The notes under the pieces: generated by a model
Told to the model about the DNA's origin: nothing
Databases searched by the model: none
The model's input: only the letters and a program-made list of their open reading frames with translations
Translations under genes and position numbers: made by a program
In this document: one piece after another, positions 3,856 through 35,357 of the stretch
How the letters are laid out: the number at the start of each line of letters is the position of its first letter
Position numbering within the stretch: the stretch's first letter is position 1
Source: a virus
Virus record (IMG/VR): IMGVR_UViG_3300028578_000004
Coordinates: 1 to 56,531 of that record
Reading direction: 5' to 3' (one strand)
DNA length: 56,531 bases

Positions 3856-4098
3856 ATGCCTAAGCTCCCCGGTCCCCCGTACAGCGGAGCCGATTACCCG
3901 CAACCCCAAGGCATAGAAGTCGGTTGGTGGGGCGGCAAGTTCAAAACCGATCCGGATGGGGTGCTGCACTTTCGCGCCAAAGGATTCTTCGATGACCCGA
4001 TGCGCTGCGGAGCGTCACCGCGCGAGGACTGGCGGGGGAACCCGACCGAGTGGAAGTCCGAGTGCGTCGTGTGTTTCGACCAAGGGGCGATCTTTTGA
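3856..4098 (+). CDS. Hypothetical protein (80 aa)
   Basis: ATG immediately after the upstream stop. Coding-like GC3. Confidence 0.65.
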   Translation: MPKLPGPPYSGADYPQPQGIEVGWWGGKFKTDPDGVLHFRAKGFFDDPMRCGASPREDWRGNPTEWKSECVVCFDQGAIF

Positions 4099-4463
4099 AC
4101 CCCGTGTGCGGCAAGAGACATCTCGGAGCCTTCGATCGTTGCGAGCTCCCCGCCGGCCACGACCGCGCCCCACGCAAGCCCCTTCGGCAACGCTCCGAAA
4201 AGCAGGAGGTCAAAGAGTCCGAGTGGCAAGCAATCAAGCGCCGCAAGGTCAACCGGCAACGGGCGATTCACGGCTTCACCTTCTGCGAACGATGCGGCAA
4301 GCGCACCAAATGGCTCCAGTGCCACCACACGGACTACCGGAGCCGCGGAGGGTCGAACACCGAGGACAACGCCGAACTACTCTGCACGGGCCCGGGGTCA
4401 TGCCATGAGCGTGAACACGGCACGCCCTGGCCGAAAGATCGCGAAGACCCCGAAGGTACTTGA
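4095..4463 (+). CDS. HNH endonuclease
   Basis: CERCGKRTKWLQCHHTDYRSRGGSNTEDNAELLCTGPGSCHEREH. The start is taken at TTG 4095, which overlaps the upstream stop. GTG 4104 is an alternative. Confidence 0.8.
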   Translation: MNPVCGKRHLGAFDRCELPAGHDRAPRKPLRQRSEKQEVKESEWQAIKRRKVNRQRAIHGFTFCERCGKRTKWLQCHHTDYRSRGGSNTEDNAELLCTGPGSCHEREHGTPWPKDREDPEGT

Positions 4464-4488: not shown

Positions 4489-4532
4489 CGGTCCCACAAC
4501 TGAATAAGCGGGGTACACCACACCCCGAGAAA

Positions 4533-4545
4533 GGGATGAGCGACC
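4533..4545 (+). promoter_or_regulatory. Copy 1 of the exact 13-nt motif GGGATGAGCGACC
   Basis: The same 13-mer occurs at 15374 and 32835, each time in an intergenic gap just upstream of a small Cys-rich ORF. The internal ATG opens a 5-codon uORF (MSDPL) whose stop overlaps ATG 4550. Confidence 0.7.
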
Positions 4546-12096: not shown

Positions 12097-12231
12097 ATGG
12101 ATCAGATCGACTTCTGGAGGCGCACGGACCTCGGCCTCCTGCTCCCGCCGGTGGCCCCTGAGCCCCTGATCTTCGACCCCGCCCCCTTCGAGGGTGAGAC
12201 CGAGCCCTGCCCGTGCGGAGGGATCAGGTGA
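12097..12231 (+). CDS. Hypothetical small protein (44 aa)
   Basis: Hand-translated. ATG 12097, and the stop overlaps GTG 12228 of the terS candidate. Confidence 0.45.
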   Translation: MDQIDFWRRTDLGLLLPPVAPEPLIFDPAPFEGETEPCPCGGIR

Positions 12232-12923
12232 CGGCCGAAGACACGAAGCCCCCTCAGAGCGCACAGGAAGCCCCAGAAGGACCGAACGCGCAAACAGGTG
12301 GCGAGGGGGCCGAAGGCCAAGGGAAGTCTGCTACAGCCATCGCTGAGCGTCCTATGGAGTCCTCTGTCTCGGAGTCGTCTGGGCGTGGGGAGGGCCAGCG
12401 GACGCATCGGACGGACTCACACGCGCAGGAGCCACCCAAAAAGCGCCGTAAGCCGCCGGCCCCCGCCGACTGGAAAGAGCGATTCATCGCCTCGCTCGAG
12501 GAGTATCCGGTCGTCGCCACGGCCCTCACCCGAGCGCAGGTCTCGAAGACCCACGCCTATGACACGAAGGCAGCCGATCCCGAGTTCGCAGAGGCCTGGC
12601 GTCTGGCCCTAGAGACGGGGGCCGACAAGATCGAGCAGACCGCTCTCGAGGTCGCCCACGAAGGCGATGTGGTGATGACCTGCACGTACCACGAGAACGG
12701 TGCGCTCGCGACCTGCAAGGTGCAGCAGTTCCGCTCGAGGGGCTTCCAGGACCGTCAGATGATGCTGAAGGCCATCCGACCGGAGCGGTTCAGGGAGCGG
12801 TACGAGGTCAAGCAGACGACGGGCGACGTCGACCGGGAGATCCAAGAGCTGTTCGACGCGTTCAAGGCCGGCGGCGGGGTCGGGCCCCCGAAGGGTGGGC
12901 CGGAGAAGGCGGGGAGCGGATGA
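12228..12923 (+). CDS. terS: Terminase small subunit
   Basis: Lies two genes upstream of terL (a small zinc-finger ORF intervenes). The HTH-like segment ERFIASLEEYPVVATALTRAQVSKTHAYDTKAADPEFAEAWRLALETGADKIEQTALEVA is typical of actinophage TerS. Alternative starts are GTG 12213 and ATG 12354. Confidence 0.7.
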   Translation: MTAEDTKPPQSAQEAPEGPNAQTGGEGAEGQGKSATAIAERPMESSVSESSGRGEGQRTHRTDSHAQEPPKKRRKPPAPADWKERFIASLEEYPVVATALTRAQVSKTHAYDTKAADPEFAEAWRLALETGADKIEQTALEVAHEGDVVMTCTYHENGALATCKVQQFRSRGFQDRQMMLKAIRPERFRERYEVKQTTGDVDREIQELFDAFKAGGGVGPPKGGPEKAGSG

Positions 12924-13237
12924 GCAGGAGCCGAATACGACCTCACTCCGATGATGTGGTGAACGCCTGCCCGCTGTGCGAGGCCCGCGTTGGGCGCCCC
13001 TGTACGAACCCTCGAGGCCTCCCGCTGCCCGGGGGCCGAGTCCATGTGGCCCGTTTGCGGGCAGCCGAACCTCTGCCTGATCCAGCCGACGCAGTCGTAA
13101 TGACGTGCCCGCTGGTGACGGTCGGTGATGTTGCGGCGCTGGAGGAGGCAGGCATCTTCGATGCCTGGTGGCGCGACATGGGGCGAAGCCTTCACGCCCT
13201 CGCCCGAGTTCGAAAGGGAGCGGAGAGTGCTAGCTAG
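12920..13237 (+). CDS. Small zinc-finger protein between terS and terL
   Basis: ATGA overlap start. The motif ACPLCEARVGRPCTNPRG..VHVARL matches a CxxC..PC..H..R zinc-finger pattern common in actinobacterial phages and plasmids. Confidence 0.65.
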   Translation: MSRSRIRPHSDDVVNACPLCEARVGRPCTNPRGLPLPGGRVHVARLRAAEPLPDPADAVVMTCPLVTVGDVAALEEAGIFDAWWRDMGRSLHALARVRKGAESAS

Positions 13238-13327: not shown

Positions 13328-14974
13328 GTGGCTGACCCCGCCCCCAAGATCGAAGTCGCCCGCACCATGCCGACCGACCTGCTCACGAGCGGTCGATGGC
13401 GAACCTGGTCCGAGCCCGACAAGGTCAAGCTCCGCAACGTCTTAAGGCGCGCGAAGTTCCGGCGGACCTACGAGTACGACCCGGTCGCGTTCGTGCATGA
13501 CTGCTTCAAGTGGGACGACCTGCCGGACTCAGGGCCGGCCCCGTATCAGTCCGACGTGCTGGCGAAGCTCGTGGAGGAGCACCGGGTCGCGCTGCGCGGT
13601 CCCCACGGGTTGGGGAAAAGTTCCTGTCTGGCGTGGGCGATCCTGTGGTTCGCGCTCACCCGCGATGGCGACAACTGGAAGGTCCCGACCACGGCATCGG
13701 CACGGGCGCAACTTCGGCTCTACCTCTGGCCAGAGGTCCACGTTTGGGTTCGTCGACTACGGTGGGAGGCCATCGGTCGGGACCCGTTCATCGAAGGCCG
13801 CGACCTGCTGGACGAAGCCCTCAAACTCGACACCGGCGAGGCGTACGCGTTGGCATCGAACGACCCGGCGAAGATGGAGGGCGGCCACGCGGACCGGATG
13901 CTCATCATCTACGACGAGGCGAAGAAGATCCCGGCCGGTACGTTCGAGGCGTTCCAGGGAGCCGTGTCAAACGCCGGCCCCGAGACCGGCAGGGAAGCGC
14001 TCGAGCTGATGGGCTCGACCCCCGGCGACCCACATGGCCACTTCTACCAGGTGAACCAGAGGCGGGTCCCGGGCTACAAGCTCATCATCGTCACCAAGGA
14101 GATGGCGATCGCGGCGGGCCGGATGTCTCCCTCGTGGGTCGAGCGCATGAAGACCGTGTGGGGCGAGCACTCGGCGACGTACATCCGTAGGGTCGAGGGA
14201 AACTTCGCCGCCGGCGATGAGAAGTCCGTTCTGCCTCAAGCGTGGGTGGAGGCCGCGGTCGAGCGGTGGACGGAGGCCGCGGTCCCAGCAGTCGGTGACG
14301 CGGACCTGCTCGAGGGCAGGGTGTTCGACGGCCTGATGCTGCCGGAAGAGCTCGTGGGCCCGCTGTCGGTCGCGTCGATGGACGTCGCAGACTCGGGAGA
14401 CGACCGCACGACGATCGCACTGCGACACGGCCCGGCCATCATCCGGCTACAGGAGTTCCCGTACGACCCGGACGCCCACCTCATGGCCGCGACCGGTGCA
14501 CTGGTCGCGATCCTCAGGGGAGCGGAGGCTGGGTTCGCGACCGTTGACTCGGTCGGCGTCGGGGCCGGGGTGCTCGCGCGGCTCCAGGAGCTCCGACGCA
14601 CGGGCGAGATCCGTGAGGACCCCGTGGGCTTCATCGCCCAAGGGAAGTCCGACCTCATGGACGAGACCGGCTCTTACGGGTTCAGGGACCTGCGAGCCGA
14701 GGCGTGGTGGGGATTCCGACAGCGCCTGCACCCGACCAAGGGCGACGGGATCATGCTGCCACCTCACGATGAGCTGCAGGCCGAGCTCACGGTATCGGGA
14801 TGGCGCGCCTTGTCAGAAGGCCGCATCCGCATCGAAGAAAAGGACGAGGTCAAAAAGGCCGACCGCCTCGGCCGCTCCCCCGACCTCGCGGACGCGGTGG
14901 TCATGGCGTTCTGGGCGCGCCCCGCGGTCGCGTACTCGCAGACCGGACGGGGGCGACGGATTCCGGGGATGTAG
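13328..14974 (+). CDS. terL: Terminase large subunit
   Basis: 548 aa. Walker A LRGPHGLGKSS and Walker B LIIYDEAKK, with a C-terminal nuclease-like half. The start is GTG 13328, with ATG 13367 as an alternative. Confidence 0.9.
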   Translation: MADPAPKIEVARTMPTDLLTSGRWRTWSEPDKVKLRNVLRRAKFRRTYEYDPVAFVHDCFKWDDLPDSGPAPYQSDVLAKLVEEHRVALRGPHGLGKSSCLAWAILWFALTRDGDNWKVPTTASARAQLRLYLWPEVHVWVRRLRWEAIGRDPFIEGRDLLDEALKLDTGEAYALASNDPAKMEGGHADRMLIIYDEAKKIPAGTFEAFQGAVSNAGPETGREALELMGSTPGDPHGHFYQVNQRRVPGYKLIIVTKEMAIAAGRMSPSWVERMKTVWGEHSATYIRRVEGNFAAGDEKSVLPQAWVEAAVERWTEAAVPAVGDADLLEGRVFDGLMLPEELVGPLSVASMDVADSGDDRTTIALRHGPAIIRLQEFPYDPDAHLMAATGALVAILRGAEAGFATVDSVGVGAGVLARLQELRRTGEIREDPVGFIAQGKSDLMDETGSYGFRDLRAEAWWGFRQRLHPTKGDGIMLPPHDELQAELTVSGWRALSEGRIRIEEKDEVKKADRLGRSPDLADAVVMAFWARPAVAYSQTGRGRRIPGM

Positions 14975-15305
14975 GGGTCGGCCCGGCGAAGCTCGTGCAA
15001 GCCTGTGACCTGGGCAAACGCGCCCGATTGGCAAATCGTTTTCGCTTGGCCCCCGGCACGTTCGTACATGCCCGCCTAGGCATCGGGTCAGAATGAAATC
15101 GTTCATAAAACGTGGCGCTGAATCCGAGCGGGCCATCGCATGTCACGATGACGTCGTTCGGAGGTCGATCTGTCAACTGAGGAGCGGGGCGACCCCTTCA
15201 ACTCCGACCCGGTCTGTCTCACCGATCCCCGATGCTCGGCCGCCCCCGCCCCTTGCTCCTTCAAGGTGTTATCGGAGTGGGGGCGAAACCGAAAGCGCAT
15301 AGCCT

Positions 15306-15318
15306 GCGAATAATTCGC
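15306..15318. promoter_or_regulatory. Perfect palindrome GCGAAT-A-ATTCGC (operator-like)
   Basis: 13-nt AT-rich dyad in a GC-rich genome, 56 nt upstream of motif copy 2 and next to TTGCAA (15326-31). Confidence 0.35.
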
Positions 15319-15373
15319 GTCCCATTTGCAAACGGGAATATGACGCCCCTACCGAGTACACTTCCACCCAACA

Positions 15374-15386
15374 GGGATGAGCGACC
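15374..15386 (+). promoter_or_regulatory. Copy 2 of the 13-nt motif GGGATGAGCGACC
   Basis: Exact repeat. The internal ATG opens a 10-codon uORF (MSDLEEDPYG) whose stop overlaps the start region of the 15402 ORF. The GAGGAGGA RBS follows the motif. Confidence 0.7.
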
Positions 15387-15401
15387 TTGAGGAGGACCCC
15401 T

Positions 15402-15587
15402 ATGGCTGATGCCGCGCCCAGCGTTGCGCTGCCCGTAGACTGGGCGTGTCGACGATGCAGGTCACCGATCGAGGCGTGTGCCAACTGCCGGTTGTCGGAT
15501 CGGTCGTACATCGGTTGCGACTATCACGGCTACTGCTCAGAGTGCGCTGACGCCTTGGGTAACGAACTAGCTCGGTGGACCTCGTGA
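15402..15587 (+). CDS. Cys-rich zinc-ribbon protein (61 aa)
   Basis: GAGGAGGA RBS 7 nt upstream of ATG 15402. Contains CRRC, CANC and CSEC. Confidence 0.7.
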   Translation: MADAAPSVALPVDWACRRCRSPIEACANCRLSDRSYIGCDYHGYCSECADALGNELARWTS

Positions 15588-15766
15588 CCAACGACTGGTC
15601 CGTCACCGAGTACGCCCTCGGAACGGACGACCACCCGACACAACCCGTGACGTTGACGCGTACGGACCTCGACTGGCGCGGAACGCACTCACGCGTGATC
15701 GGTAGGTTCGCGGACGCGCGTCTAGCAGGGATAGCGAAGGCCGAAGGGGAGGCGATGGCGAGATGA
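15584..15766 (+). CDS. Hypothetical protein (60 aa)
   Basis: GTGA overlap start. GTG 15575 is an alternative. Confidence 0.55.
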   Translation: MTNDWSVTEYALGTDDHPTQPVTLTRTDLDWRGTHSRVIGRFADARLAGIAKAEGEAMAR

Positions 15767-15942
15767 TCCGTCGCATTCGCAGGATCGAGCGCGCAGTCGA
15801 AGACGAGTTCCCCGGTGCCGCGGTCGAAGTCGAGGAGGCGCGCTCGGGGTCGGGCGAGATCGTGCTGCACATCTTCACCGGCCACACGGAGTTGTCGCGT
15901 GGGCGCGTCCGTAAGATGACCGAAGAGGAGTTGGCGAGATGA
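15763..15942 (+). CDS. Hypothetical protein (59 aa)
   Basis: Hand-translated, with ATGA overlaps at both ends. Confidence 0.55.
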   Translation: MIRRIRRIERAVEDEFPGAAVEVEEARSGSGEIVLHIFTGHTELSRGRVRKMTEEELAR

Positions 15943-17462
15943 CCGAGCAGAAGATACCGACCGCGCAGGACCTGGCCGAGGCACTTCGCGCCGGGCTAAC
16001 GGCACCAGTCGGCGAGTGGTCATGTGGGGAGTTGTACTGGACCGACGTGATCGAGTTCGCAGCCCGCCGTCTCGAGCACAACGTCCTCCTGATGAGCGGG
16101 TTGGACGAGCGGTTCGCGGACGACGTGACGCGCGCTGTCTCGGAGGCGACGGGTGTCCCGGCGGTCGCTGTCCCCGCTGGCACGCATGTCACCGCGATCG
16201 AGCCGACCGAGGAGACGGTCGCGTACTTCATGCGCCGCGGGAGTGAGGAGACGCGCGGTGACCTGCGCGAGGTAGCCGAGAGGTTGCACGAGGTCACCGG
16301 CAAGCTCGTCTTCTGGACGGACGACGGAGACCTGCGATCCGTCAGCGAGGAGGAGATGCGCGAGGCTGGATGGGTGCGAGCCGAGGATGCACCTGTGCCG
16401 TGGGCAGCGGATTCGAGCGCATCGACTGTCCGCCGATTCGAGGCCCTGATCCACCTGCACGAAGGGTTCGGGGAGGAGCGCCCGATCCCCACTCAAGACG
16501 AGGTCACGGACGCGATCCACGCCGCTGTGGTCCAAGGTCTGTGGAACTTCAACGGCCAGACGCGGGTAAGGGAAGCGGGAGCGAAAGAGCAGGGGCGAGT
16601 CCTCACCGAGAAGGAAGGACCGCGCACCACCGAGACCGCTGTAGCCGAGTATCTAGAGGCGATGGCGGCGCGGCTGGACTCATCGCCCGGCGTGCAGACC
16701 TGGCAGTCGGCTGCGCTACGCGAGGCAGCGGAGGTCGTTCGCGGGCAGGCCGGTGGAGGGGGAACGTCGGACGAGGCCGAACCCCTCGAGCCTGGCACTC
16801 ACTGGGAGCACTTCCTCGGGGGCCTGTCGCTGAGGATCGGCGAGAAGGGTGAGGCGTGGCTCATCTCGGTCTATCCGCCGGATGCAGAGCCATGCCGCTA
16901 CAGCATCGGGCGAGCCGATGCGGAATACCTCGCCGACCTCCTGTCGCGCTGGGCGAAGACGTGGCCGAAGTGGGGGCCCCCGGAGGCGGACGGCCCCTCA
17001 GAGACCATCTGGCCGGAATGCCCGCAGTGCGGGAAGCACGCCACCGTGCACGATACCGGCCAGGAACTGTTCACCTGCCCAGAGGGGCACTCGTGGCCTG
17101 CACCTGTAGCGGCAGACACCGAACCGCCCGAGACAGCCGAGGTCTCCGTACCGGTGGTGAAGGTGACGGTGCCAGCGGAGCACGCGGACATGGACCACGA
17201 AGTCGATGCCTACCTCCAGGACGACGGCACGGTCATCGCGAAGTGCTCGTGCGGACAGTGGGGTACGGACAGCGGGGGACCCGTGCGCGAGAAGCCCAAG
17301 CCTCTGCGGACCAGGTGGGGATGCCAGTGCTGCACCCACGTCGTGGAACTCACGGAGGACGGTCGCTACCCCGATCACGAGTTCATGGCGGGTGTCAAGT
17401 GCGCGTGGTCCGGTAAGCCCGCAGGAGGCGGCGACCGCAGAGCCTCAGGTCGCCCAGGATGA
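15939..17462 (+). CDS. Large hypothetical protein with C-terminal zinc ribbons (507 aa)
   Basis: ATGA overlap start. The C-terminal part carries CPQCGK..CPEGH and CSCG..CQCC. I recognise no enzymatic motif. Confidence 0.8.
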   Translation: MTEQKIPTAQDLAEALRAGLTAPVGEWSCGELYWTDVIEFAARRLEHNVLLMSGLDERFADDVTRAVSEATGVPAVAVPAGTHVTAIEPTEETVAYFMRRGSEETRGDLREVAERLHEVTGKLVFWTDDGDLRSVSEEEMREAGWVRAEDAPVPWAADSSASTVRRFEALIHLHEGFGEERPIPTQDEVTDAIHAAVVQGLWNFNGQTRVREAGAKEQGRVLTEKEGPRTTETAVAEYLEAMAARLDSSPGVQTWQSAALREAAEVVRGQAGGGGTSDEAEPLEPGTHWEHFLGGLSLRIGEKGEAWLISVYPPDAEPCRYSIGRADAEYLADLLSRWAKTWPKWGPPEADGPSETIWPECPQCGKHATVHDTGQELFTCPEGHSWPAPVAADTEPPETAEVSVPVVKVTVPAEHADMDHEVDAYLQDDGTVIAKCSCGQWGTDSGGPVREKPKPLRTRWGCQCCTHVVELTEDGRYPDHEFMAGVKCAWSGKPAGGGDRRASGRPG

Positions 17463-17659
17463 CCCTTGCCCTAACGATCGCGGTGTGCGCGGTGGTCGGC
17501 GGACTCATCGGGGCCGTGATCGGTGGCGGGTTCGCCGACATCGCGAGCGACGCGGATCTGCGGGAGGAGTGGTTCCTCCATAGACTGAGGCTCATGGCGA
17601 TCATCGGTGAGGCCGCGCTACTGGGGGCCGCGACGTGGGTGGGGTCGTGGGTCGGGTGA
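17459..17659 (+). CDS. Small membrane protein (66 aa)
   Basis: ATGA overlap start. Two hydrophobic segments (LALTIAVCAVVGGLIGAVIGG and AIIGEAALLGAATWVGSWV). Confidence 0.65.
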   Translation: MTLALTIAVCAVVGGLIGAVIGGGFADIASDADLREEWFLHRLRLMAIIGEAALLGAATWVGSWVG

Positions 17660-17826
17660 ACGATGACGAACTCATGCAATGGGCGACACCCGCTGAGCGT
17701 GACCTTCTGCGATCGCTCGACCGACAACGCCGTCTTTGGACCGGCGTGATATGGCTGCTCGGGTTCGTGGCGGCGTGTTGGGCGGTTGTCATCATCGTGA
17801 TGATCGTGCGGGCGTGGGTCGGATGA
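17656..17826 (+). CDS. Small membrane protein (56 aa)
   Basis: GTGA overlap start. TM segment GVIWLLGFVAACWAVVIIVMIV. Confidence 0.6.
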   Translation: MNDDELMQWATPAERDLLRSLDRQRRLWTGVIWLLGFVAACWAVVIIVMIVRAWVG

Positions 17827-17996
17827 GACGCGACGTCTGCCCCTACTGCGGCTGGCCCCTGGTCATCGTCACGACGCCCGCGGGCATCTCGCAGCTGCAC
17901 GACTTCCCGGTCTGTCGCCAGTGGTGGAGCGAACGTAAGCCCGGGCGCGTTGTGAACCTCGCGGCGCCGTACCTGCCGGTGACCATCAGCGTATGA
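17823..17996 (+). CDS. Small Cys-containing protein (57 aa)
   Basis: ATGA overlap start. Contains a CPYC motif. Confidence 0.55.
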   Translation: MRRDVCPYCGWPLVIVTTPAGISQLHDFPVCRQWWSERKPGRVVNLAAPYLPVTISV

Positions 17997-18187
17997 GGCG
18001 TACGGAGTATGAGTTCGTAGAGAAGACCGAGGTCGTGCGGGCTGCAAGTCGTGGTGCCCTTCAGCGCGCACGTCAGGAGGGCATCAGAAGCGCGACGTTC
18101 GTCGCTGCGGAACCGATGAAGGGTGGCTATATGCGGGTCCGTCTTCGAGGTATTGATCCCTACATCGGAGCGGGAGGCCACCCATGA
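17993..18187 (+). CDS. Hypothetical protein (64 aa)
   Basis: ATGA overlap start. Confidence 0.55.
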   Translation: MRRTEYEFVEKTEVVRAASRGALQRARQEGIRSATFVAAEPMKGGYMRVRLRGIDPYIGAGGHP

Positions 18188-18209
18188 CGACCCAAGGGAG
18201 GAGTAGCCG

Positions 18210-18350
18210 GTGAGCACGCTCGTACGCGTGACGATGAGGGTTGACGACGACAACGACGTCAGGGCAGCAGAGGCCGTAGTCGACGTGCTGAACCTGGTTC
18301 CGGGCGACGTCCTGGAGACGGAGATTCTGGAGGCCACCCATGACGACTGA
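18210..18350 (+). CDS. Hypothetical acidic small protein (46 aa)
   Basis: Hand-translated. GGGAGGAG RBS, then GTG 18210. Confidence 0.5.
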   Translation: MSTLVRVTMRVDDDNDVRAAEAVVDVLNLVPGDVLETEILEATHDD

Positions 18351-18489
18351 CCCCCGCAAGCCACGCCCCACCAAGCGCAAGCGCCGAAAGAAGAGACGCG
18401 CTCGAGACCTACCGGAAGACGCCCAGCGGTCCACGAAGATGAAGCCGCGACGCGCGGTGATCGGGGACAGGGACTCGTGGGGGCGATGA
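18340..18489 (+). CDS. Hypothetical highly basic small protein (49 aa)
   Basis: Hand-translated. Contains the KRKRRKKRR run, and the stop overlaps the next ATG. Confidence 0.45.
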   Translation: MTTDPRKPRPTKRKRRKKRRARDLPEDAQRSTKMKPRRAVIGDRDSWGR

Positions 18490-18683
18490 GCGAGACCGTC
18501 AGCGCCATTCCCGATGTGTTGGAGGTCATCCCGGGCATGAGCACGCAGAGGCGCGTTGAGTTGTCGTGCGGACATCTGCGATTGCTGATGCACGCGCAAA
18601 CGGGGCATCCCCTTGTCGGGGTGTACGCAGAGTGCGATGAGTGCGGGGGTCGCCTGCGACAGGTTCAGGAGGTCATTCGGTGA
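18486..18683 (+). CDS. Hypothetical protein with a CDEC motif (65 aa)
   Basis: ATGA overlap start. GTG 18477 is an alternative. Confidence 0.6.
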   Translation: MSETVSAIPDVLEVIPGMSTQRRVELSCGHLRLLMHAQTGHPLVGVYAECDECGGRLRQVQEVIR

Positions 18684-18922
18684 CCGGCCCCCACATCTGC
18701 GGCGCCTGCGGACAGTGCGCGGTGACGGTAGAGCGCGACTCCGAAGAGGTTCGCGTCGTCTGCTCGGCCTGCAACACGAAGAGGGTGCACGTACCCGTGT
18801 GGGCGACGGCCGATGATCGGGTGCTCGCGATGGTGATCGGCCGGCCGCCCGTGAAGCGCGGGAAGCCCAGGAAGCGGAGCGGCGGGAATATCGCATCGGT
18901 GACCGGGGGAGTGCGACTGTAG
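18680..18922 (+). CDS. Zinc-ribbon protein (80 aa)
   Basis: GTGA overlap start. Contains CGAC and CSAC pairs. Confidence 0.6.
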   Translation: MTGPHICGACGQCAVTVERDSEEVRVVCSACNTKRVHVPVWATADDRVLAMVIGRPPVKRGKPRKRSGGNIASVTGGVRL

Positions 18923-19348
18923 GTGAGTGCCGAAGTGTTCTATTACCACGGTGGCCCACCCGATCTGCGCGTGGGTGATCTGATCGAGCCGCAACCCATG
19001 GACCGGGGCCGCCATCTTGTCGATGGGTGCCCGGTGTGCGAGGCCCGGAAGAACGGGAAGCCCTCCGACTACGACCAGAACCACCGATTCGATCGGGTCT
19101 ACGTCACAACCGACAAGTTCGTTGCGAAGTGTTTCGCCGCTGGCTATCCGAGAGGGAGCCTCTACCGGGTCGAGCCGATCGGCGACTTGGAACCCGATCC
19201 AGAGCATGAGCAGTCGTTTGCGGTGCCTGCGGCTCGAATCGTGAAGGTCGCTGAACGAGGGATCGACCCGAGCCGTTGGTCGAAGGCGGACGTTCGGAGG
19301 TTCCTGAAGCTCGGCGGGGTCGCCCAAAGCCTCCGTACAACCACGTAA
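18923..19348 (+). CDS. Arr-family (rifampin ADP-ribosyltransferase-like) ADP-ribosyltransferase homologue
   Basis: By eye it shows the Arr pattern: FYYHGGPPDLRVGDLIEP (compare the Arr consensus Y-x-HGT..L.VGD.L.P), RVYVTTD, then GSLYRVEPIGDLEPDPE (compare Arr consensus I-F/Y-I-VEP-x-G-x-x-E-DDPN) and RIVKV. It carries an extra CPVCEARKNG insertion. Confidence 0.65.
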   Translation: MSAEVFYYHGGPPDLRVGDLIEPQPMDRGRHLVDGCPVCEARKNGKPSDYDQNHRFDRVYVTTDKFVAKCFAAGYPRGSLYRVEPIGDLEPDPEHEQSFAVPAARIVKVAERGIDPSRWSKADVRRFLKLGGVAQSLRTTT

Positions 19349-19372
19349 TTCCCCCTGTAGCATTCCCGCCCA

Positions 19373-19714
19373 ATGAGGGCACCCACTAGAACGCGCACCC
19401 GCGTCCCCCGACAGGTCACGTCCGCGGACATCCTTCCGGCGCGCGTGGTCGGGCTCGAAGGCGGACAGGAGGCCGACCACCGCGTCTACATCTCGGACGG
19501 CACACTCCGGGTGTTCCGGGCGCGTAAGGCCCCTCAGCGTGGCTCTGAGCGCGTCCTAGAGGCAGCAGTCGCTTCCGCCACTCTGACCGGCCGCGGGACC
19601 TGGACCGTTCAGACGGAGGACGGGCAGACCCTCACCGTCACCAAGCAAGGCCGATGTGCGTGCGGGTCGCCCTTGCAGTCGATCAGTCGGCGCGAGCTCA
19701 GGGGGATGGCGTGA
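19373..19714 (+). CDS. Hypothetical protein (113 aa)
   Basis: ATG 19373 has no clear RBS, so the true start may be further downstream. Confidence 0.5.
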   Translation: MRAPTRTRTRVPRQVTSADILPARVVGLEGGQEADHRVYISDGTLRVFRARKAPQRGSERVLEAAVASATLTGRGTWTVQTEDGQTLTVTKQGRCACGSPLQSISRRELRGMA

Positions 19715-19815
19715 CCACGCGCGAAAAGACTCTCGTGTTCGCGACGCTGCTCGTCGGGTTGGTCAACAACGTGGTCCTGTTGGTCCATGCGATAGCGGCA
19801 GCGAGGGGGCGGTGA
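19711..19815 (+). CDS. Very small membrane peptide (34 aa)
   Basis: Hand-translated. GTGA overlap start and the hydrophobic core LVFATLLVGLVNNVVLLVHAIAA. Confidence 0.4.
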   Translation: MTTREKTLVFATLLVGLVNNVVLLVHAIAAARGR

Positions 19816-19819
19816 TTCG

Positions 19820-20089
19820 ATGAGGCAACGACTCCGCGACCTATGGCGACGCCTCCCGTGGGGACGGACGCGACCTCAGCCGGTGGGTGTATGTCCCTCG
19901 TGCGGGAGTTTCAAGGTTCGCGAGCGCGAGCCCGAGTGGCCGAACAAGCCGCCGTTCTGGTGTGCCGACTGCGGCGACAAGTGGGCGGGCATCTACAGCC
20001 CGGCGATCAAGGCGAGCGACCTCAGCGTCCGCGTCCTGAGTCCGATCAGGGCTGACCTCGGGGTTATCGAAGACTGGCCGGGTTCGTGA
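19820..20089 (+). CDS. Zinc-ribbon protein (89 aa)
   Basis: Contains CPSC and CADC pairs. Confidence 0.65.
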   Translation: MRQRLRDLWRRLPWGRTRPQPVGVCPSCGSFKVREREPEWPNKPPFWCADCGDKWAGIYSPAIKASDLSVRVLSPIRADLGVIEDWPGS

Positions 20090-20400
20090 TCGAAGCAGCC
20101 GCCCTCGAAGCCCTCGCCCTCTGCATCCTCATGGCCCTCGCGGCCTATCGGATCTTCCGTCTGCTCGCAGTCGACGACTTCCCGCCGATCGTGTGGGCGC
20201 GCGACCGCGTGGATGACTGGATCGCGGAGAGGTTCGGGGACGAGTGGGCGGACGGGCTGACCTGCGGGTGGTGTCTCGGCGCGTGGTGCTCATTCGCGGT
20301 GGTCGGTCTCACCGACGCGTTCACGTCCGTCCCGCTGGTCGGGCTGCAGCTAGGCGCGGTCTCGACGATCGTCGGCATTCTCGGATCGAAGGTCGACTAG
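20086..20400 (+). CDS. DUF1360-like membrane protein
   Basis: GTGA overlap start. AYRIFRLLAVDDFPPIVWARDRV..LTCGWCLGAWCS, followed by a TM segment, matches my recollection of the DUF1360 pattern. Confidence 0.6.
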   Translation: MIEAAALEALALCILMALAAYRIFRLLAVDDFPPIVWARDRVDDWIAERFGDEWADGLTCGWCLGAWCSFAVVGLTDAFTSVPLVGLQLGAVSTIVGILGSKVD

Positions 20401-20778
20401 ATGGCAGAGTGCGCCTTCTGCGAGATCATCGCTGGCAACGCTCCGGCTAAGTTTGTGAATCGCAACGCCGACGCCAGCGCGTTCGTGCCTTTGAACCCCG
20501 TGGTGGAGGGGCACGTGCTGGTGGTCCCTCACAGGCACGCCCGATACATTTGGGAACTCGACTCGTCGTCTTTAGCGATGGCTGTGGCGATGGCCGCCCA
20601 GCTGGCCACAAACATCGCCTGCAACGTCATCCAATCGAACGGGGTAGCCGCGACGCAGACGGTTCCGCACGTTCACTTCCACATCGTTCCACGGAGCGGG
20701 GGCGATGGCCTGATGTTGCCGTGGACAGGGCAGACCGAAGGCGCGGTTCCAAGCACTCCTGAAGGTCCCTGTGACTGA
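20401..20778 (+). CDS. HIT-family (histidine triad) nucleotide hydrolase or transferase
   Basis: N-terminal CAFCEII and the histidine triad VPHVHFHIVPR. Confidence 0.85.
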   Translation: MAECAFCEIIAGNAPAKFVNRNADASAFVPLNPVVEGHVLVVPHRHARYIWELDSSSLAMAVAMAAQLATNIACNVIQSNGVAATQTVPHVHFHIVPRSGGDGLMLPWTGQTEGAVPSTPEGPCD

Positions 20779-20797
20779 GCCGGGAAGGGTGGGCTAG

Positions 20798-21001
20798 ATG
20801 GCGAAGCTCGGAACCGTTCGCACCGACCCCGGCGCGATGAAGTGCCAGGTCAATGGCTGTGGCGCGGATGTGACGGCCGTGATCGAACTGAAGGCCACGC
20901 CGTTGGAGCACGAATCCGACGACGTTGTCTACTTCGGGATCGAGTCGAACATCATCGCCCTAGAAGGGTGCGAGCACGCTGAAGCCTGGGAGCCCGAGTA
21001 A
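20798..21001 (+). CDS. Hypothetical protein (67 aa)
   Basis: ATG 20798 with GGAAGGGTGGG upstream. Confidence 0.6.
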   Translation: MAKLGTVRTDPGAMKCQVNGCGADVTAVIELKATPLEHESDDVVYFGIESNIIALEGCEHAEAWEPE

Positions 21002-23377
21002 GTGGGGGCGCTCGCGCGACTTGCGCGGCGTAGGGGGCTGACGGCAGCGGCAAACGTGCTCGCCCCGGCGCACTCGGCCCTTCCGATCCCCGATGCCTGG
21101 CCGGCCCCGGTGGTCGCAGCAGCGCGCGTCATTGGGATCGCGGATGACCGCACGGAGGCCAGAAAGCTCATCGAGCGCCAGGCGAAGTGGCAGGACCACG
21201 CGTGGGACTACTTCGACGCGCTCGGCGAGGTCAAGTACTCGGGCAATTTCATCGGCAACGCGCTGTCCAAGCTGATCCTGTTCCCGGCGCGACGTCCGGC
21301 CCCCGGACAGCAGCAACCGGAGCCGATTGAGGACGCGGCCCCCATGGATGCGCTCGCCCGCCTCGAGGGCCCGCTCGGGGGCCACCCAGAAATCATGGGC
21401 GCTGCGGGCGTGCACTTCAGCATCCCCGGCGAGTGCTACCTGATCGGTCGCGAGCTGGACCCCGGCGACGAGCGATGGGAGATCCGGGCGAAGGACGAGG
21501 TCAAGCGATCGGCTGAGGGCAAGGTCATCCTCATTGACGGCGGGGACGACAAGGAGAAGGTCGAGCTCGGGGAAGACTCGATGCTCGTTCGCATGTGGAG
21601 TCCGCACCGTCGACGCGCGTGGCAGGCCGACTCACCTCTGCGCGGCGTGCTGTCTCAGTGTGAGGAGCTTCTGATCCTCGACCGCATGGCGCGCGCGACG
21701 GAGCGGAGCCGCAACAACGCTGGCGTGCTGGCCGTGCCGAACGAACTGCGCAAGGTGCGTCGGCAGGTGGGGACGGACGCGAGTTTGGTAGCGGAAGAGG
21801 GCGACCTCGTGGACGAGCTGCTCGAGGCCCTGGGTACTCCGGTCAAAGACGAGGGTCACGCCAACGCGATCGTTCCGCACCTGCTGTTCGGGGAAGAGAA
21901 GTACCTCGACAAGGTCCGGCTGATCGAGCTGTCGCGCACGCTGGACGCGTGGATCGATGTGCGCACGGAGCGCGTGCAGAAGCGGCTCGCGGGGGGTCTG
22001 AACCTTCCGATTGAAGTCGTGCTCGGTATCGGGTCCGCGAATCACTGGTCCGCCTGGGCTATCGACGAGTCGGCGTTCAAGGCGCACCTAGAGCCCCTGA
22101 CGCTGACGATCCTGTCGAGCCTCACGGTCGGATACCTGCATCCGATGCTCCGGGCCGCGGGGGTGCCGAACTGGCGCGACTACATCATTTGGTACGACCC
22201 GGTTCGTCTCGTGGCCCGACCGAACGCGGTGGGCGACGCGAAGGATCTCCACGACCGAGGGGTCATCCGAGACGAAGACCTGCGGGGGGCCGCGGGCTAC
22301 GACGAGACGTCCGCCCCGGATGAGGATGAGATTCAGCGTCGGCTCATATGGCGATCATCGGGCCGACCGTCGGTAGCCGTGGACGGGGCCGAGACCCCAG
22401 AGCAGGGTCCACCCGAGCAGGAAGACTCGCAGGCGTCCGTCACCGCGGCGGCTACCCGCGAAGACCCCGACCTCGCGCGCCTCGCGCGCCGACAGGCCGA
22501 CCTCGACCGCCAGCTGTACGCGCGTCTGGAGGCCGCGTTCGAAGCCGTACTCGACCAAGTTCTAGACCGCGCCGGTGCCCGGGTCGTGCAGGCGGCGAAC
22601 AAGGGCCGGGGCCGGACGAAGGGCACGGCAGCGGCGTCACCCGCCGTCCAAGCGCGCGTGGCCGCCGGCGCGTTGGTGAAGGACGTACCGAGGCGACAGG
22701 TGATTAAGACCCTCGGCCCGGCGATCGTGGCGCAACTCGGGCTCCAGGAGGAAGACCTGCTACGCGGTGCGTTCGACGACTTAGAAGACAGGTTCCGCGC
22801 GTGGGTAGGCCAGACGCAGACGGCAGCCCTCGGACTCGTCCCGGACTTGACGGACGCCGAGAGACGAGACGCGGAGCGGGAGTTCGAGCGCCTGCTGGAC
22901 GACGCGTGGGCGTGGACGCGAGACGCGCTGACGGACCTCGCGCGCGAACGCCTGCACGACCCCGACCCCCGCGCACCTGAGAACGGCGAGCACGACGCGA
23001 CGGCGACCGTTCCGTTTGCGATCATCCGCGAGGCCGTGGCGAGGGCAGGTGGAGCAGTCGGGCCGGACGCCCCGGTCGTGTCCGCCGCGGTTCTGGACCC
23101 CGTGAAGACGGCGCTGGGACTCGCGACCGGATGGCTCATGCAAAAGCTGTTCCGCTCCAAGGGGATCGAAACCGAAGGCTGGGTGTGGGAGTACGGCCCG
23201 TACCCCAGAACCACCGAATTCGAGCCGCACGCGGACCTCGATGGCACGGAGTTCGTGAACTTCGATGATGCGGTGCTGGCGAACAACGAGGGGTGGCCAC
23301 GGTACGCGCACTACCATCCCGGGGACCACGAGACGTGCCGTTGCTCAGCACGTCCGGCGCTGGTGAGGGTCCGATGA
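21002..23377 (+). CDS. Portal protein fused to a MuF-like minor head protein domain
   Basis: 791-aa uninterrupted ORF. The N-terminal two thirds look portal-like (WQDHAWDYFDALGEVKYSGNFIGNALSKL). The C-terminal HADLDGTEFVNFDD..YHPGDHETCRC is the SPP1 gp7 / Mu gpF signature. Confidence 0.8.
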   Translation: MGALARLARRRGLTAAANVLAPAHSALPIPDAWPAPVVAAARVIGIADDRTEARKLIERQAKWQDHAWDYFDALGEVKYSGNFIGNALSKLILFPARRPAPGQQQPEPIEDAAPMDALARLEGPLGGHPEIMGAAGVHFSIPGECYLIGRELDPGDERWEIRAKDEVKRSAEGKVILIDGGDDKEKVELGEDSMLVRMWSPHRRRAWQADSPLRGVLSQCEELLILDRMARATERSRNNAGVLAVPNELRKVRRQVGTDASLVAEEGDLVDELLEALGTPVKDEGHANAIVPHLLFGEEKYLDKVRLIELSRTLDAWIDVRTERVQKRLAGGLNLPIEVVLGIGSANHWSAWAIDESAFKAHLEPLTLTILSSLTVGYLHPMLRAAGVPNWRDYIIWYDPVRLVARPNAVGDAKDLHDRGVIRDEDLRGAAGYDETSAPDEDEIQRRLIWRSSGRPSVAVDGAETPEQGPPEQEDSQASVTAAATREDPDLARLARRQADLDRQLYARLEAAFEAVLDQVLDRAGARVVQAANKGRGRTKGTAAASPAVQARVAAGALVKDVPRRQVIKTLGPAIVAQLGLQEEDLLRGAFDDLEDRFRAWVGQTQTAALGLVPDLTDAERRDAEREFERLLDDAWAWTRDALTDLARERLHDPDPRAPENGEHDATATVPFAIIREAVARAGGAVGPDAPVVSAAVLDPVKTALGLATGWLMQKLFRSKGIETEGWVWEYGPYPRTTEFEPHADLDGTEFVNFDDAVLANNEGWPRYAHYHPGDHETCRCSARPALVRVR

Positions 23378-23384
23378 TCGAGCC

Positions 23385-23714
23385 GTGACGCAGGTAGTCG
23401 GAGCGATTGCCGGGCTCCTCATCGGGGCCGTCCTCGTGCTGTGGTGGCGGGGGCAGACAGCGTTCACACGCTGCGGCAGAAAGCCGCGAGGACTGTCGAT
23501 TCGAGTAGACCGGGCCGGGGTCGTGCCGATCCCATGGCGACAGCGTCTGTGCCGCCTCCGCATCCCCGCCTATGGCCAGACATTTCGCGAGTGGTTCATC
23601 CCGCTTCCCTTCAACGGTGTCGCCTGCGTGTGCTGGGTGCCGCTGAAGTGGCCCGACGAATCCCACATCGCTCCCGAACCCCCAAGTACCCTGACCCCGG
23701 AGGTGAAGCCATGA
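23385..23714 (+). CDS. Small membrane protein (109 aa)
   Basis: GTG start and an N-terminal TM segment VVGAIAGLLIGAVLVLWW. The stop overlaps the protease ATG. Confidence 0.5.
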   Translation: MTQVVGAIAGLLIGAVLVLWWRGQTAFTRCGRKPRGLSIRVDRAGVVPIPWRQRLCRLRIPAYGQTFREWFIPLPFNGVACVCWVPLKWPDESHIAPEPPSTLTPEVKP

Positions 23715-25228
23715 GGTGGACGGTCCAGGACGCAGAGGGCGGCGGGTTCGTCGTCACCCGCGATGACGGATCAGAAGTCGCGCAAACCGGCACGTTTCAA
23801 GAAGCACGCACGGCGATCACGACGGATGCGCGCGGGCATCTCGCGGAGATCCCGGCAGACGCCCCGAGCTCGGGCCGGGTGCGGATGCTGGCCGTACCCG
23901 AGGGCACCGAGACGTCAGACGGGCGCCTGATCGACGAGGGCGCGCTCGAGCCGAGGCCGATGCCGTTGCCGCTCATGCTCCAGACCACCACGGATATGGG
24001 CCACTTCGGGGCCGAGCTGTCGGGGCGGATCGATGCGTTCTCGCGCGACGGCAACAACGTGATCCTGACGGGCGATCTCGACGACTCGGAGGCCGGAAGA
24101 CGGTTCCGCGAGATCCTGGACCAGCACGGACGCTACGGGCTGTCGGTCGACCTCGGCCGCATGGAGGTCGACTACGAGTGCCGGGAGAAGGACGAAGACG
24201 GCTACTGCACGGATGAGCTGATGACCGTCACGTCCGGGGAACTTCTAGGGGCCACGGCCTGCCCGTTTCCTGCGTTCGCGGAGGCGTACGTGGAGCTCGA
24301 AGGCTCCGGGGGCCAGCCCGCCGAGGGCGCGCCAGACCCCGAGGAGGGTGCCGACCAAGCCGCGAACCGTCCGGCCCCCGGCCGCTGGTCTCAGGGCGAC
24401 AACCGCGCAGCCGCATCGTTCATCATGCAGACCGTCCCGTCAGAGCGCGTGGAGGTCCGTCGCGAACCGCCCCGGCCCGTCACGGCCGCGGTGGAGATCC
24501 CGGTCGACCCGCCTGCGGAGTTCTTCCTGCACCACGGGATGACGCCCGACGAGACCGGCAGCATCTCGATCGATGACGACGGCAGGGTCTACGGTTACGT
24601 TGCGGAGTGGGATCGGTGTCACGTCGGGTTCGAGGGATCGTGCGTCCCGCCGCCGAGGTCGGTGAGCGATTACGCGTACTTCCGCCACGGGTCGGTCAGG
24701 CCGTGTGGACCCGACTGCGACCCCGTACCCACCGGCACGATCATCATGGGGACCGACCATCCCTCCACGGATGCGTCGGTGTCCATGCAGGCCGCGTACT
24801 CGCACTACGCGAACACGGGCTCAGCCGCGGCGGACATCGCGTGCGGCGAGGACGACTACGGCATTTGGTTCTCTGGAGCTTTGCGTCCGGGGGTCACACC
24901 TGAGCAGATCCGGGAGCTTCGCGGGTCGTCTATCTCCGGTGACTGGCGGCCTGCGGGAGGGGCGCTGGAGCTGATTGCCGCGCTCGCGGTGAACGCGCCG
25001 GGCTTCCCGATCCCTCGAGCGCGTATGTCGCTCGCGGCGTCGGGGGCGGTCGAAGTCCAGGCGATGGTCGCGGTCGGGGCGCTCCCGGCAGACGAGACGG
25101 GCGAGAGGCGTCGGCTCAACGACCTCGAAAAGCGCATGAAGGCCGTGGAGAACATCGCGTTTGCCCCCAAGCTGAGGGCTATGGCGGCATCCGCGTATCG
25201 CGAGCAGATAGCGGGGCCAACGGGCTAG
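23711..25228 (+). CDS. Capsid maturation (prohead) protease
   Basis: ATGA overlap start. The N-terminal part looks HK97-protease-like (LPLMLQTTTDMGHFG..YGLSVDL). The C-terminal part has WDRCHVGF..CVPPPRS..GEDDYGIWFSG..ISGDWR..VNAPGFP, as in actinophage maturation proteases. Confidence 0.75.
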   Translation: MRWTVQDAEGGGFVVTRDDGSEVAQTGTFQEARTAITTDARGHLAEIPADAPSSGRVRMLAVPEGTETSDGRLIDEGALEPRPMPLPLMLQTTTDMGHFGAELSGRIDAFSRDGNNVILTGDLDDSEAGRRFREILDQHGRYGLSVDLGRMEVDYECREKDEDGYCTDELMTVTSGELLGATACPFPAFAEAYVELEGSGGQPAEGAPDPEEGADQAANRPAPGRWSQGDNRAAASFIMQTVPSERVEVRREPPRPVTAAVEIPVDPPAEFFLHHGMTPDETGSISIDDDGRVYGYVAEWDRCHVGFEGSCVPPPRSVSDYAYFRHGSVRPCGPDCDPVPTGTIIMGTDHPSTDASVSMQAAYSHYANTGSAAADIACGEDDYGIWFSGALRPGVTPEQIRELRGSSISGDWRPAGGALELIAALAVNAPGFPIPRARMSLAASGAVEVQAMVAVGALPADETGERRRLNDLEKRMKAVENIAFAPKLRAMAASAYREQIAGPTG

Positions 25229-25900
25229 ACGGGCCGGTCGCGCGCGGGCTAGGCTTCATCCCGTCACCGTTCTGAGAGCCGGTGACACCCGTCTGGGAGG
25301 GACGGGGGCGTGTGGGCCTTTCACACTGTCGGCCCTAACGGGGTCGCTCCGGGCTGTTTCGAGCGATACCCGTGCGCCCCCTCCCGTGGGCCTGTAGAGT
25401 GAGCGGACATTCCACGGCAGGCAAAGAGGTGTCCCCGAGCCGCCTTCCTAGGGCGTGGCGGTAGGGCGAGTTCCGTTCAAGGCTCGGTGCAGGACGGGAC
25501 GATGGCGAGAGGCGTCTCCAAGGATCTTCGGATCGGAGGGGGCGCCTTCGCCGCGTCTGGGCTACGATGGCAACCACGCCCATCCCCGGGCCGAGCCACC
25601 CGGAAGCCCCGTCTTCGAGTCTCTCCCAATGCTCAACGGACGGGGCTTCCCCGCGTAGAATCTCCAGCGGGGGCTACCGCCTCGGACCCGCTGGAACGGA
25701 TTCGAGAACCCCATCTCAGAGGGACCCGTTTGCACGCGGTCCCTCTTTGCGTGCCGGGGTCCGCGAAATCCTTGACAAGCCGCGGTAACGTTGCCCTCAT
25801 TCGAGCACGCCCCGTCGAAGCCACGGGGCCGCAGTCGCAGGCGATAGGCCGTAGAGCCCGCCCGACCCGCTCCTCGCATTGCCGTATCCCGCGTTTTCGC
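25229..25900 (+). ncRNA. Candidate large structured RNA (class unknown)
   Basis: There is no credible ORF. At least nine perfect helices are present:
- 25263-69/25280-86
- 25288-93/25301-06
- 25384-89/25412-17
- 25435-41/25481-87
- GGCG-TCTCC..GGAGG..CGCC enclosing GATC-TTCG-GATC at 25523-34
- A 12-bp stem at 25602-13/25639-50
- 25664-71/25687-94
- 25719-26/25738-45
- 25810-15/25823-28
There are also four TTCGAG T-loop-like elements. The strand is assumed from the operon direction. Confidence 0.45.
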
Positions 25901-25920
25901 GTACGAGGAGGACAAACCCC

Positions 25921-32819: not shown

Positions 32820-32834
32820 GATCAGGTGACACAA

Positions 32835-32847
32835 GGGATGAGCGACC
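32835..32847 (+). promoter_or_regulatory. Copy 3 of the 13-nt motif GGGATGAGCGACC
   Basis: Exact repeat in the 43-nt gap, followed by the AAGGAGG RBS and ATG 32863. TAGGAT (32818-23) lies upstream. Confidence 0.7.
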
Positions 32848-32862
32848 CCAAGGAGGCGCCGA

Positions 32863-33048
32863 ATGGAGACCCCCTGGGCGAACTGCACGACCTGCGGCGA
32901 ATACCGCCCGGTGTTCGTGCGCTTCGAGCCTGACGGAGCCCCGTACTGCCGCGGGTGCGGTGCACATCGCATGGAGCTGGAGGTCTTCCCCGCTGCCCTA
33001 GAAGACGTGCCGATCGTTGACGCAACGCAGGACGATCCGCCCGAGTGA
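32863..33048 (+). CDS. Zinc-ribbon protein (61 aa)
   Basis: AAGGAGG RBS. Contains CTTC and CRGC pairs. Confidence 0.7.
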   Translation: METPWANCTTCGEYRPVFVRFEPDGAPYCRGCGAHRMELEVFPAALEDVPIVDATQDDPPE

Positions 33049-35284: not shown

Positions 35285-35357
35285 GCTGCGTCCACGAAAA
35301 ACGCCCGGCGGGTGCGTGAACACCCCCGGGCCGGTCGACCTAACTAGGAGGTCAGAC

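Follow-up and report, generated by a model that had tools for sequence, protein, structure and literature searches.

The terL-portal interval of an uncultured soil virus is probably a region of gene exchange around a conserved backbone

The virus sequence IMGVR_UViG_3300028578_000004, which we analyzed at its full length of 56,531 nucleotides (hereafter the window), encodes a large terminase (terL, 13328-14974, + strand; phrog_2 1.3e-26, with tblastn matches to annotated terminases) and a portal protein (21002-23377, + strand; phrog_776 1.6e-98) that flank a 427-nt non-coding gap (14975-15401) and about 19 open reading frames (ORFs). This layout raises the question of whether the small genes entered as one island between two genes that would otherwise be adjacent, as a preliminary description of the sequence had proposed. 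We consider it probable that the terL-portal interval is instead a plasticity region shared across the lineage, in which non-structural genes are exchanged around a conserved backbone.

Spacing of terL and portal and the conserved backbone

Contigs traced from proteins 46-66% identical to the terL of the window served as relatives for this comparison. TerL and portal are adjacent in none of the relatives found, and the distance between them ranges from 0.86 to 7.9 kb, with two genes in 0.86 kb in L022, four in 1.6 kb in L020, four plus a tRNA-Met gene in 1.7 kb in L026, seven in 1.8 kb in L023, eight in 2.3 kb in L024 and about 25 in 7.9 kb in L025; in L019 the interval exceeds 3.3 kb, at which point the contig ends. 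By terL, the closest isolated relatives are Streptomyces phage TurkishDelight (42% amino acid (aa) identity, tblastn), which has 8 genes in a 4.3-kb interval, and Actinoplanes phage phiAsp2 (39.5%), which has many genes behind terL. Since the two genes are never neighbors in this lineage, synteny rules out a single island inserted between otherwise adjacent terL and portal genes, and a long actinophage terL-portal interval should not be annotated as one island. A search for near-identical DNA among isolated phages gave no match to the window, a terL-based search of IMG/VR gave none either, and a scan of species genomes returned only remote alphaproteobacterial prophage terminases, which are useless for synteny. 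The tRNA-Met (CAT) gene of L026 lies at 3910-3984, 8 nt past the terL stop codon, and is followed by a transglycosylase-domain gene.

What the relatives share is the gene order immediately ahead of portal. We number the ORFs of the window o1 to o19 from left to right, all on the + strand. A profile of o14 (19373-19714), which encodes a 113-aa protein with a G.C.C..PL motif, matches all seven relatives in which the region is covered (L020, L022-L026 and L029, the ORF being uncalled in L024), and every time the family member lies between terL and a DUF1360-like gene. The latter, o17 in the window (20086-20400), encodes a predicted membrane protein with three transmembrane segments; it is found just upstream of portal in all relatives and has homologues in TurkishDelight (gp10) and in Microbacterium phage Phinky, where gp27 is the sole gene between terminase and portal. 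o17 matches phrog_781 at 2.7e-12 and scores 15.2 bits against PF07098, below the Pfam cut-off of 21; nine of nine o17 orthologues match that family, the best at 1.8e-11, and the o17 family has hydrophobic segments and a conserved YR...D...R...CxWC motif. The third gene, o19 (20798-21001), encodes a 67-aa Cys protein, abuts the portal start codon and is matched at 9.5e-7 by a profile built from L020, L024 and L025 with the window excluded. L022 has the minimal order of terL, o14-like gene, DUF1360-like gene and portal, and in L020 and L023, too, no gene intervenes between terL and the o14 family member. Sequence comparison identifies the o14 family, the DUF1360-like gene and o19 as a conserved backbone just upstream of portal; these genes may act in packaging or head assembly and offer defined functional targets.

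The remaining ORFs occupy three slots: 13 ORFs (o1-o13, 15402-19348) lie between terL and o14, two (o15 and o16) between o14 and the DUF1360-like gene, and one, encoding a HIT-family protein (o18), between the DUF1360-like gene and o19. By pairwise and profile comparison, the occupants of all three slots have no counterpart in most relatives.

Gene replacement in close relatives and the predicted cargo

Two relatives, L028 and L029, are close enough to expose individual replacements. L028 (about 90% identical), which was found by a pattern scan for a conserved element, shares the 3' end of terL with the window, after which the first ~250 nt of its spacer are wholly different and the last ~240 nt of the gap are again shared through ATGGCTGA, such that only 15181-15419 aligns (89.6%). 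Directly behind the shared ATGGCTGA, an unrelated 106-aa first ORF replaces o1 (15402-15587), the variable head gene of the window, which encodes 61 aa with three CxxC pairs. o2 (15575-15766, 63 aa) is kept in L028 at 91% nucleotide identity, the variable o3 (15763-15942, 59 aa, third-codon-position G+C (GC3) of 0.82) is absent, and o2 abuts o4 (15939-17462). o2 opens a cassette, o2/o4/o5, that is also present in L019, L028 and L031, with o2 itself 72% identical to L019 and 78% to L031; o5 (17459-17659) encodes a 66-aa membrane peptide with a hydrophobic stretch, homologues of which lie behind an o4-like gene in L019, L031 and L032.

L029 (about 87% identical) keeps o12, o14 (88%), the DUF1360-like gene (88%) and o19 (63%). 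It carries a 57-aa ORF in the position of the window's Arr-family gene (o13) and a 129-aa ORF in place of o15 and o16, of which o16 survives only as a 70-nt remnant, and the HIT gene is missing, such that o19 directly follows the DUF1360-like gene. On both sides of the HIT gene, the window has a 17-nt near-repeat of the junction of stop codon, ribosome-binding site (RBS) and start codon, and this junction is single-copy in L029. We therefore propose that the slots terL/o14, o14/DUF1360 and DUF1360/o19 acquire, lose and exchange small non-structural genes singly. Because a near-repeat flanks the HIT gene and a breakpoint lies inside the shared leader at o1, these exchanges may occur at gene boundaries by short-homology recombination. 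Relatives that are 87-90% identical can in this way reveal single-gene replacement at gene boundaries, with the conserved leader as a likely recombination joint.

A further relative, L032, has a collinear o4/o5/o7/o10 set that adjoins genes of the HNH, HTH_36 and DnaC/IstB-like types. The DnaC/IstB-like gene is 66% identical to the window at 54025-54756, which places the o4 block of L032 in the replication region, and because the set adjoins replication genes there, we take the o4/o5/o7/o10 block to be non-structural. These observations bear on the notion that the whole block consists of conserved, lineage-specific packaging or head-assembly genes and is not accessory at all. The conserved order of o14, the DUF1360-like gene and o19 beside portal agrees with that notion, as does the presence of the DUF1360-like gene in TurkishDelight and Phinky. 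However, most relatives lack the other 13-16 ORFs, which refutes it for most ORFs, individual ORFs are missing or replaced in relatives that are 87-90% identical, and the o4 block has its L032 counterpart in the replication region; as an account of the entire block, we find it very unlikely. The preliminary description had called the block accessory, and this holds for most of its ORFs, some of which are absent or replaced in these close relatives, and does not hold for o14, the DUF1360-like gene and o19, which related phages carry as conserved genes.

Given that the window derives from a metagenome assembly, the interval might also be mis-joined foreign DNA. The window corresponds, in rotated form, to a soil-metagenome contig of 56.5 kb, its sequence recurs in two further assemblies from one soil sample, and the terL-portal arrangement is identical in all three assemblies. 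Pieces of the interval were also recovered from independent samples, L028 and L029, which confirm the junctions piecewise, and composition and codon bias are uniform. Because the three assemblies agree and pieces occur in independent samples, we exclude an assembly artefact, and a chimeric origin is scarcely conceivable.

The collection's gene caller predicts 16 ORFs in 15402-21001, all in the same orientation, and three further ORFs are possible (17635-17826, 17993-18187 and 18340-18489), in agreement with the preliminary description, which had counted about 19 behind the 427-nt non-coding region. GC3 is mostly 0.75-0.88 across the ORFs of the interval, and packing is tight, with 4-nt overlaps. 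Tiny membrane peptides, also part of that description, are indeed present: o5, o6 (17635-17826) and o15 (19654-19815). o6 is an uncertain ORF for a possible 63-aa peptide (GC3 0.70, uncalled by the collection's gene caller), and o15 encodes 53 aa and is variable. o7 (17736-17996) encodes an 86-aa Cys-containing protein whose long start is supported by homology to L032 (46% over 81 aa, 3e-20). o8 (17993-18187) is a weak, possible 64-aa ORF (GC3 0.60, uncalled), and o9 (18210-18350, 46 aa, GC3 0.81) is called. o10 (18340-18489), encoding a Lys/Arg-rich 49-aa product, gains support as a real ORF from its homologue in L032 (3965-4093; 47%, 4e-9). It is followed by o11 (18477-18683, 68 aa), by o12 (18641-18922), a 93-aa zinc-ribbon protein with CxxC pairs that is 59% identical to L029, and, behind o14 and o15, by o16 (19820-20089), a variable 89-aa zinc-ribbon protein with a weak Lar-like match below the cut-off.

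The longest product, the 507-aa o4, is a near-orphan. As had been noted from the sequence, it lacks a recognizable enzymatic motif: o4 has no match in Pfam, PHROG, NCBIfam, PADLOC or the Protein Data Bank (PDB), including a profile search against the PDB, and a word-index search returned only o4 itself. A search of 1.84 billion representative proteins gave three true homologues of o4, with conservation in an N-terminal alpha/beta region, in EPLEPGxxWEH and SRW motifs and in a zinc ribbon of the form CxxC...H...C at the C-terminus. A 972-aa match, P0125, proved to be an insect cuticle protein and was discarded as a false positive.

The Arr-like, HIT and DUF1360-like proteins named at the outset are likewise real. 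o13 (18923-19348), which occupies a variable slot, contains the Arr-ms domain PF12120 (30.2 bits against a cut-off of 25; E 5.4e-7). The catalytic residues of Arr-ms are reportedly H19, Y49 and D84, and H9, Y60 and D92 of o13 align with these positions in structure 2hw2. We classify o13 by its sequence as a distant member of the Arr family. Its homologues occur in 46 phage records, and it groups with Gordonia, Microbacterium and Sinorhizobium PBC5 phage proteins, a group for which modification of rifamycin-like or other diffusible compounds has been predicted (Iyer et al. 2022, PMC9503650). The substrate of o13 would likely be a small molecule, rifamycin-like or otherwise, or else a target in the host. 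o18 (20401-20778), an inserted cassette in its own right, encodes a HIT-family hydrolase (PF01230 6e-17, 62.5 bits against a cut-off of 21.5) that matches HIT genes in 272 phage records. Its HIT motif is intact (HVHFHIV, with VPHVHFHIVP aligned to PDB 3ksv at 1e-20), such that catalytic positions are intact in both the Arr-like and the HIT protein. The best matches of o18 are HINT-like, all NCBIfam HIT equivalogs score below their cut-offs, and a PADLOC scan gave only a generic HIT match; o18 may be a HINT-type nucleotide hydrolase. Together with the zinc-ribbon proteins, the membrane peptides and the o2/o4/o5 cassette, these enzymes would form an auxiliary cargo for interaction with the host, presumably of benefit to the phage, and both enzymes and the o2/o4/o5 cassette are candidates for a role in host interaction or counter-defence.

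Signals at the head of the block

The gap extends from the terL stop codon at 14974 to 15402, the first ATG preceded by a GAGGAGG RBS (15389-15395, + strand, 6 nt ahead of the ATG); its first ~210 nt are variable and its last ~215 nt conserved. No ORF with a start codon in the gap gives a coding-type GC3 signal, Rfam searches of the gap at the gathering threshold and at E up to 1 yielded no match, and the gap folds no better than shuffled sequence (z-score -0.36). Two adjoining operator-like palindromes, GCGAATAATTCGC (15306-15318) and TCCCATTTGCAAACGGGA (15320-15337), are kept in L028, the first exactly and the second as GTTTGCAAAC. Downstream, a -10-like hexamer, TACACT (15357-15362, + strand), lies 10 nt upstream of the 14-nt start-associated motif AGGGATGAGCGACC (15373-15386, + strand). 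The palindrome, motif and strong RBS that had been listed as the block's own signals are thus in place.

Exact copies of AGGGATGAGCGACC occur three times in the window, at 4532-4545, 15373-15386 and 32834-32847, all on the + strand and each ahead of a small Cys-rich gene, and the exact recurrence of a 14-mer in 56.5 kb is far beyond chance. When one C/T variation is allowed, eight copies are found in five related genomes, ahead of unrelated genes; all eight are followed by a start codon and seven by a Shine-Dalgarno-like RBS with an AGGAGG core. A TAnnnT hexamer lies 8-13 nt upstream in six of seven motif copies, against a background of 0.66% (binomial p < 1e-7). IMG/VR scans for the motif and for the 112-nt element described below gave one chance match, in the AT-rich phage L027, and nothing else. 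Because the motif mostly stands upstream of a separate GAGGAGG and has the -10-like hexamer in front of it, we favor a promoter and leader over a translation signal, and a -10 element followed by a conserved 5' leader looks like a putative promoter unit. The largest slot would accordingly hold a block headed by a -10-like TAnnnT, a spacer of 8-13 nt, AGGGAYGAGCGACC, GAGGAGG and ATG. The same unit heads two other non-structural blocks of the window and, in L032, precedes HNH and replication genes, and for this reason we propose that the block is most likely transcribed in the non-structural (early or middle) programme. Transcripts would be expected to read through into portal, since there is no terminator. 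If so, the motif and the -10-like hexamer provide a testable marker for one class of transcription unit in an uncultured phage group.

The contexts of the other two copies differ in detail. At copy 1, in the early region, an HNH gene (4095-4463) precedes the motif, which lies 4 nt ahead of a 118-aa Cys-rich gene (phrog_6842; region to 4906) and lacks the separate RBS that copies 2 and 3 have; the N-termini of the 118-aa protein and of o1 have CRRC(K/R)(A/S)P in common. Copy 3 heads a second non-structural block within the structural region (32834-39272), between the head-tail adaptor and the tape measure gene, which encodes a 61-aa zinc-ribbon protein (32863-33048), a glycosyltransferase-like protein (33045-34004), an HNH endonuclease (34075-34797) and a peptidase (38463-39272). 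We also considered the internal ATG of the motif as the start of a short upstream ORF and rejected this, as there is no correctly spaced RBS and the frame length is inconsistent at copy 3.

Alternatively, the gap could contain the late promoter of the whole structural operon, in which case the small genes would be its leading genes, expressed late with portal and the head genes and under no separate control. The co-orientation of the genes, their 4-nt overlaps and the contact between o19 and portal all agree with this, there is no + strand terminator in 12-24 kb, and neither a further motif copy nor a further gap precedes portal. By contrast, the same motif and leader head the early-region gene at 4550 and the HNH/replication genes of L032, and in L020, L022 and L023, which have two to seven genes in the interval, the post-terL spacer measures only 18-69 nt. 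With a spacer of almost nil, portal in these three relatives would have to be expressed without such a gap promoter. We assign the late-promoter explanation an appreciable but minor chance.

Within the conserved part of the gap lies a 112-nt non-coding element (15187-15298, + strand) that travels with the o4 block. It is 90% identical to its counterpart in L019, compared with 71% for terL DNA, and four copies are known in all (window, L019, L028 and L032); the L032 copy is inverted and lies ~100 nt upstream of the o4-like gene (nhmmer 4.5e-9). The element matches no Rfam family, folds no better than shuffled sequence and yields no covariation in RNAalifold, whether three or four copies are used. 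We also considered a small peptide gene for the element and rejected it, because the window lacks a start codon, L019 contains a stop codon and L028 and L032 have frame-breaking indels (2 and 5 nt). Five conserved NNCCGA half-sites in both orientations lie within the element, and our best guess is that it plays a protein-binding role at the DNA level.

The conservation of this element opens the possibility that the 5' part of the interval, comprising the element, the promoter/leader and o1-o10, is a discrete relocatable module, in which the element would act as a site of recombination or control. In L032, the motif and the collinear o4/o5/o7/o10 set do occur together with the element at another position in the genome, and the element is inverted there; the element is also more conserved than terL (90% versus 71%) and has the five half-sites. 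Yet family and profile searches found no recombinase, transposase or homing endonuclease in the block, no terminal repeats bound it, only four element copies are known and the 3' limit of the block varies between genomes, all of which makes such a module unlikely. More doubtful still is a specific form of the proposal, in which a self-contained early-gene module would be able to reside beside replication genes (L032) or between terL and portal (window, L019, L028) and would encode a zinc-ribbon protein that binds the element and controls or moves the module. If true, this module would constitute a promoter-carrying mobile gene cassette of a kind undescribed in actinophages.

Several observations weigh against our preferred reading of the interval as a plasticity region whose largest block carries host-interaction cargo under a promoter-like head. 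A consensus sigma-70 scan of 12-24 kb found no promoter and no -35 element is evident; the same scan of L028 and L019 found none either. The absence of a + strand terminator extends to both block ends, which leaves the block uninsulated from the late operon. Block composition (GC 0.63-0.68) matches the rest of the genome. The inverted element in L032 does not fit a simple promoter model. Among sequencing runs, only those of soil DNA contain the sequence, and no RNA run does. For the cargo, AlphaFold models of o4 are unusable, with a predicted local distance difference test (pLDDT) score of 43 for o4 by itself and of 42 when four sequences were supplied, and o13 scores 24.7 bits against NCBIfam rifampin_ARR, for which the cut-off is 130, and so does not reach equivalog level. 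Of the suggestion that the block is an independently controlled module, the conserved, promoter-like head is supported and the boundaries are not, given the missing terminator and the lack of any composition shift relative to the portal operon.

Several minor features surround the element. Its 12-mer CGATCCCCGATG (15223) recurs at 21084, 33223 and 38037, each time within coding sequence, at the portal N-terminus and in two further genes, and four exact copies of a 12-mer are unexpected. By eye, L028 (minus strand, 790-1050) has TTGCGT-17 nt-TAGACT in its post-terL spacer, a site that the scanning tool does not flag, and directly ahead of the 112-nt element it has a hairpin that is GC-rich and ends in a T-rich tail; L019 has a related hairpin behind the element (3990-4030). 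Neither hairpin is flagged by the scanning tool, and these sites could be those of a small transcript.

Comparison with known phages and genome setting

Long intervals between terminase and portal have been described in several groups of isolated phages. Cluster EC Microbacterium phages such as Quhwah have 17 ORFs between terL and portal and an 18-bp asymmetric motif 21-30 bp upstream of start codons in this set and in non-structural genes, and insertions also occur in Clusters EF and EI and in the singleton Hendrix, which has 40 ORFs (Jacobs-Sera et al. 2020, PMC7302621). Arthrobacter phages of Cluster AL have five such genes, as in Laroye (Klyczek et al. 2017, PMC5513430). The window resembles the Microbacterium and Arthrobacter phages in its many small rightward ORFs between terminase and portal within an otherwise canonical structural operon and in having further insertions elsewhere among the structural genes, and it resembles Cluster EC in having a short motif in one orientation, upstream of the RBS, at terL-portal and non-structural genes. 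It differs in that it has no detectable DNA similarity to those phages, in the sequence of the motif and in its number of copies (three in the window versus 12 in Cluster EC). The layout itself has therefore already been published, and the window is an unrelated further example; what we add is the three-gene backbone, the gene-by-gene replacements and the reading of the motif as promoter-like.

The motif also invites comparison with the start-associated sequence (SAS) of Cluster K mycobacteriophages, which is 13 bp long, asymmetric and found in one orientation upstream of non-structural starts, and which is conserved across related phages ahead of unrelated genes (Pope et al. 2011, PMC3203893). 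The 13-bp form of the window motif, GGGATGAGCGACC, is likewise asymmetric, occurs in one orientation before non-structural starts and is identical to SAS, GGGATAGGAGCCC, at 8 of 13 positions, with both beginning GGGAT and ending CC. However, SAS sits in the RBS position, 3-7 bp from the start codon, whereas only the copies at 4532 and in L031 are so near a start; the others lie 15-18 nt upstream and have a separate RBS.

Morons of lambdoid and other temperate phages are extra non-core genes that lie between genes adjacent in relatives, carry their own promoter and terminator and often deviate in composition. The HIT gene resembles a moron in its location, as its neighbors, the DUF1360-like gene and o19, directly adjoin each other in L029, and the o1-o13 block does so in its location between terL and the o14 family gene, which are neighbors in L020, L022 and L023. 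With regard to an own promoter, the head of the block bears the conserved -10-like hexamer and the motif, which would be compatible with one. Unlike morons, the block has no terminator and is uniform in composition, and the HIT and Arr-family genes have no spacer that could hold a promoter. The location of these two genes also distinguishes the window from isolated actinophages, whose Arr-family and HIT homologues lie in non-structural arms and not between terL and portal.

The window has a G+C content of 66%, with almost all genes on the + strand. The small terminase gene (terS) lies at 12213-12923 and is separated from terL by a 105-aa Cys-rich ORF (12920-13237); among the three assemblies, that of SRR8270008 (L018) is alone in having this ORF called, with a weak Phage_zn_bind_8 match, and it also has a longer terS call. 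Downstream of portal follow a MuF/protease-like gene (23441-25228), the major capsid protein gene (25879-27792), tail and connector genes and the tape measure gene (41373-43949). The portals of the relatives carry differing extra domains: that of L023 (5447-8386) is 979 aa long and includes a 2',5' RNA ligase/LigT-type domain, that of L020 (13236-16202) is 988 aa long, and the portal of the window has 791 aa, of which the portal profile covers residues 31-586 only.

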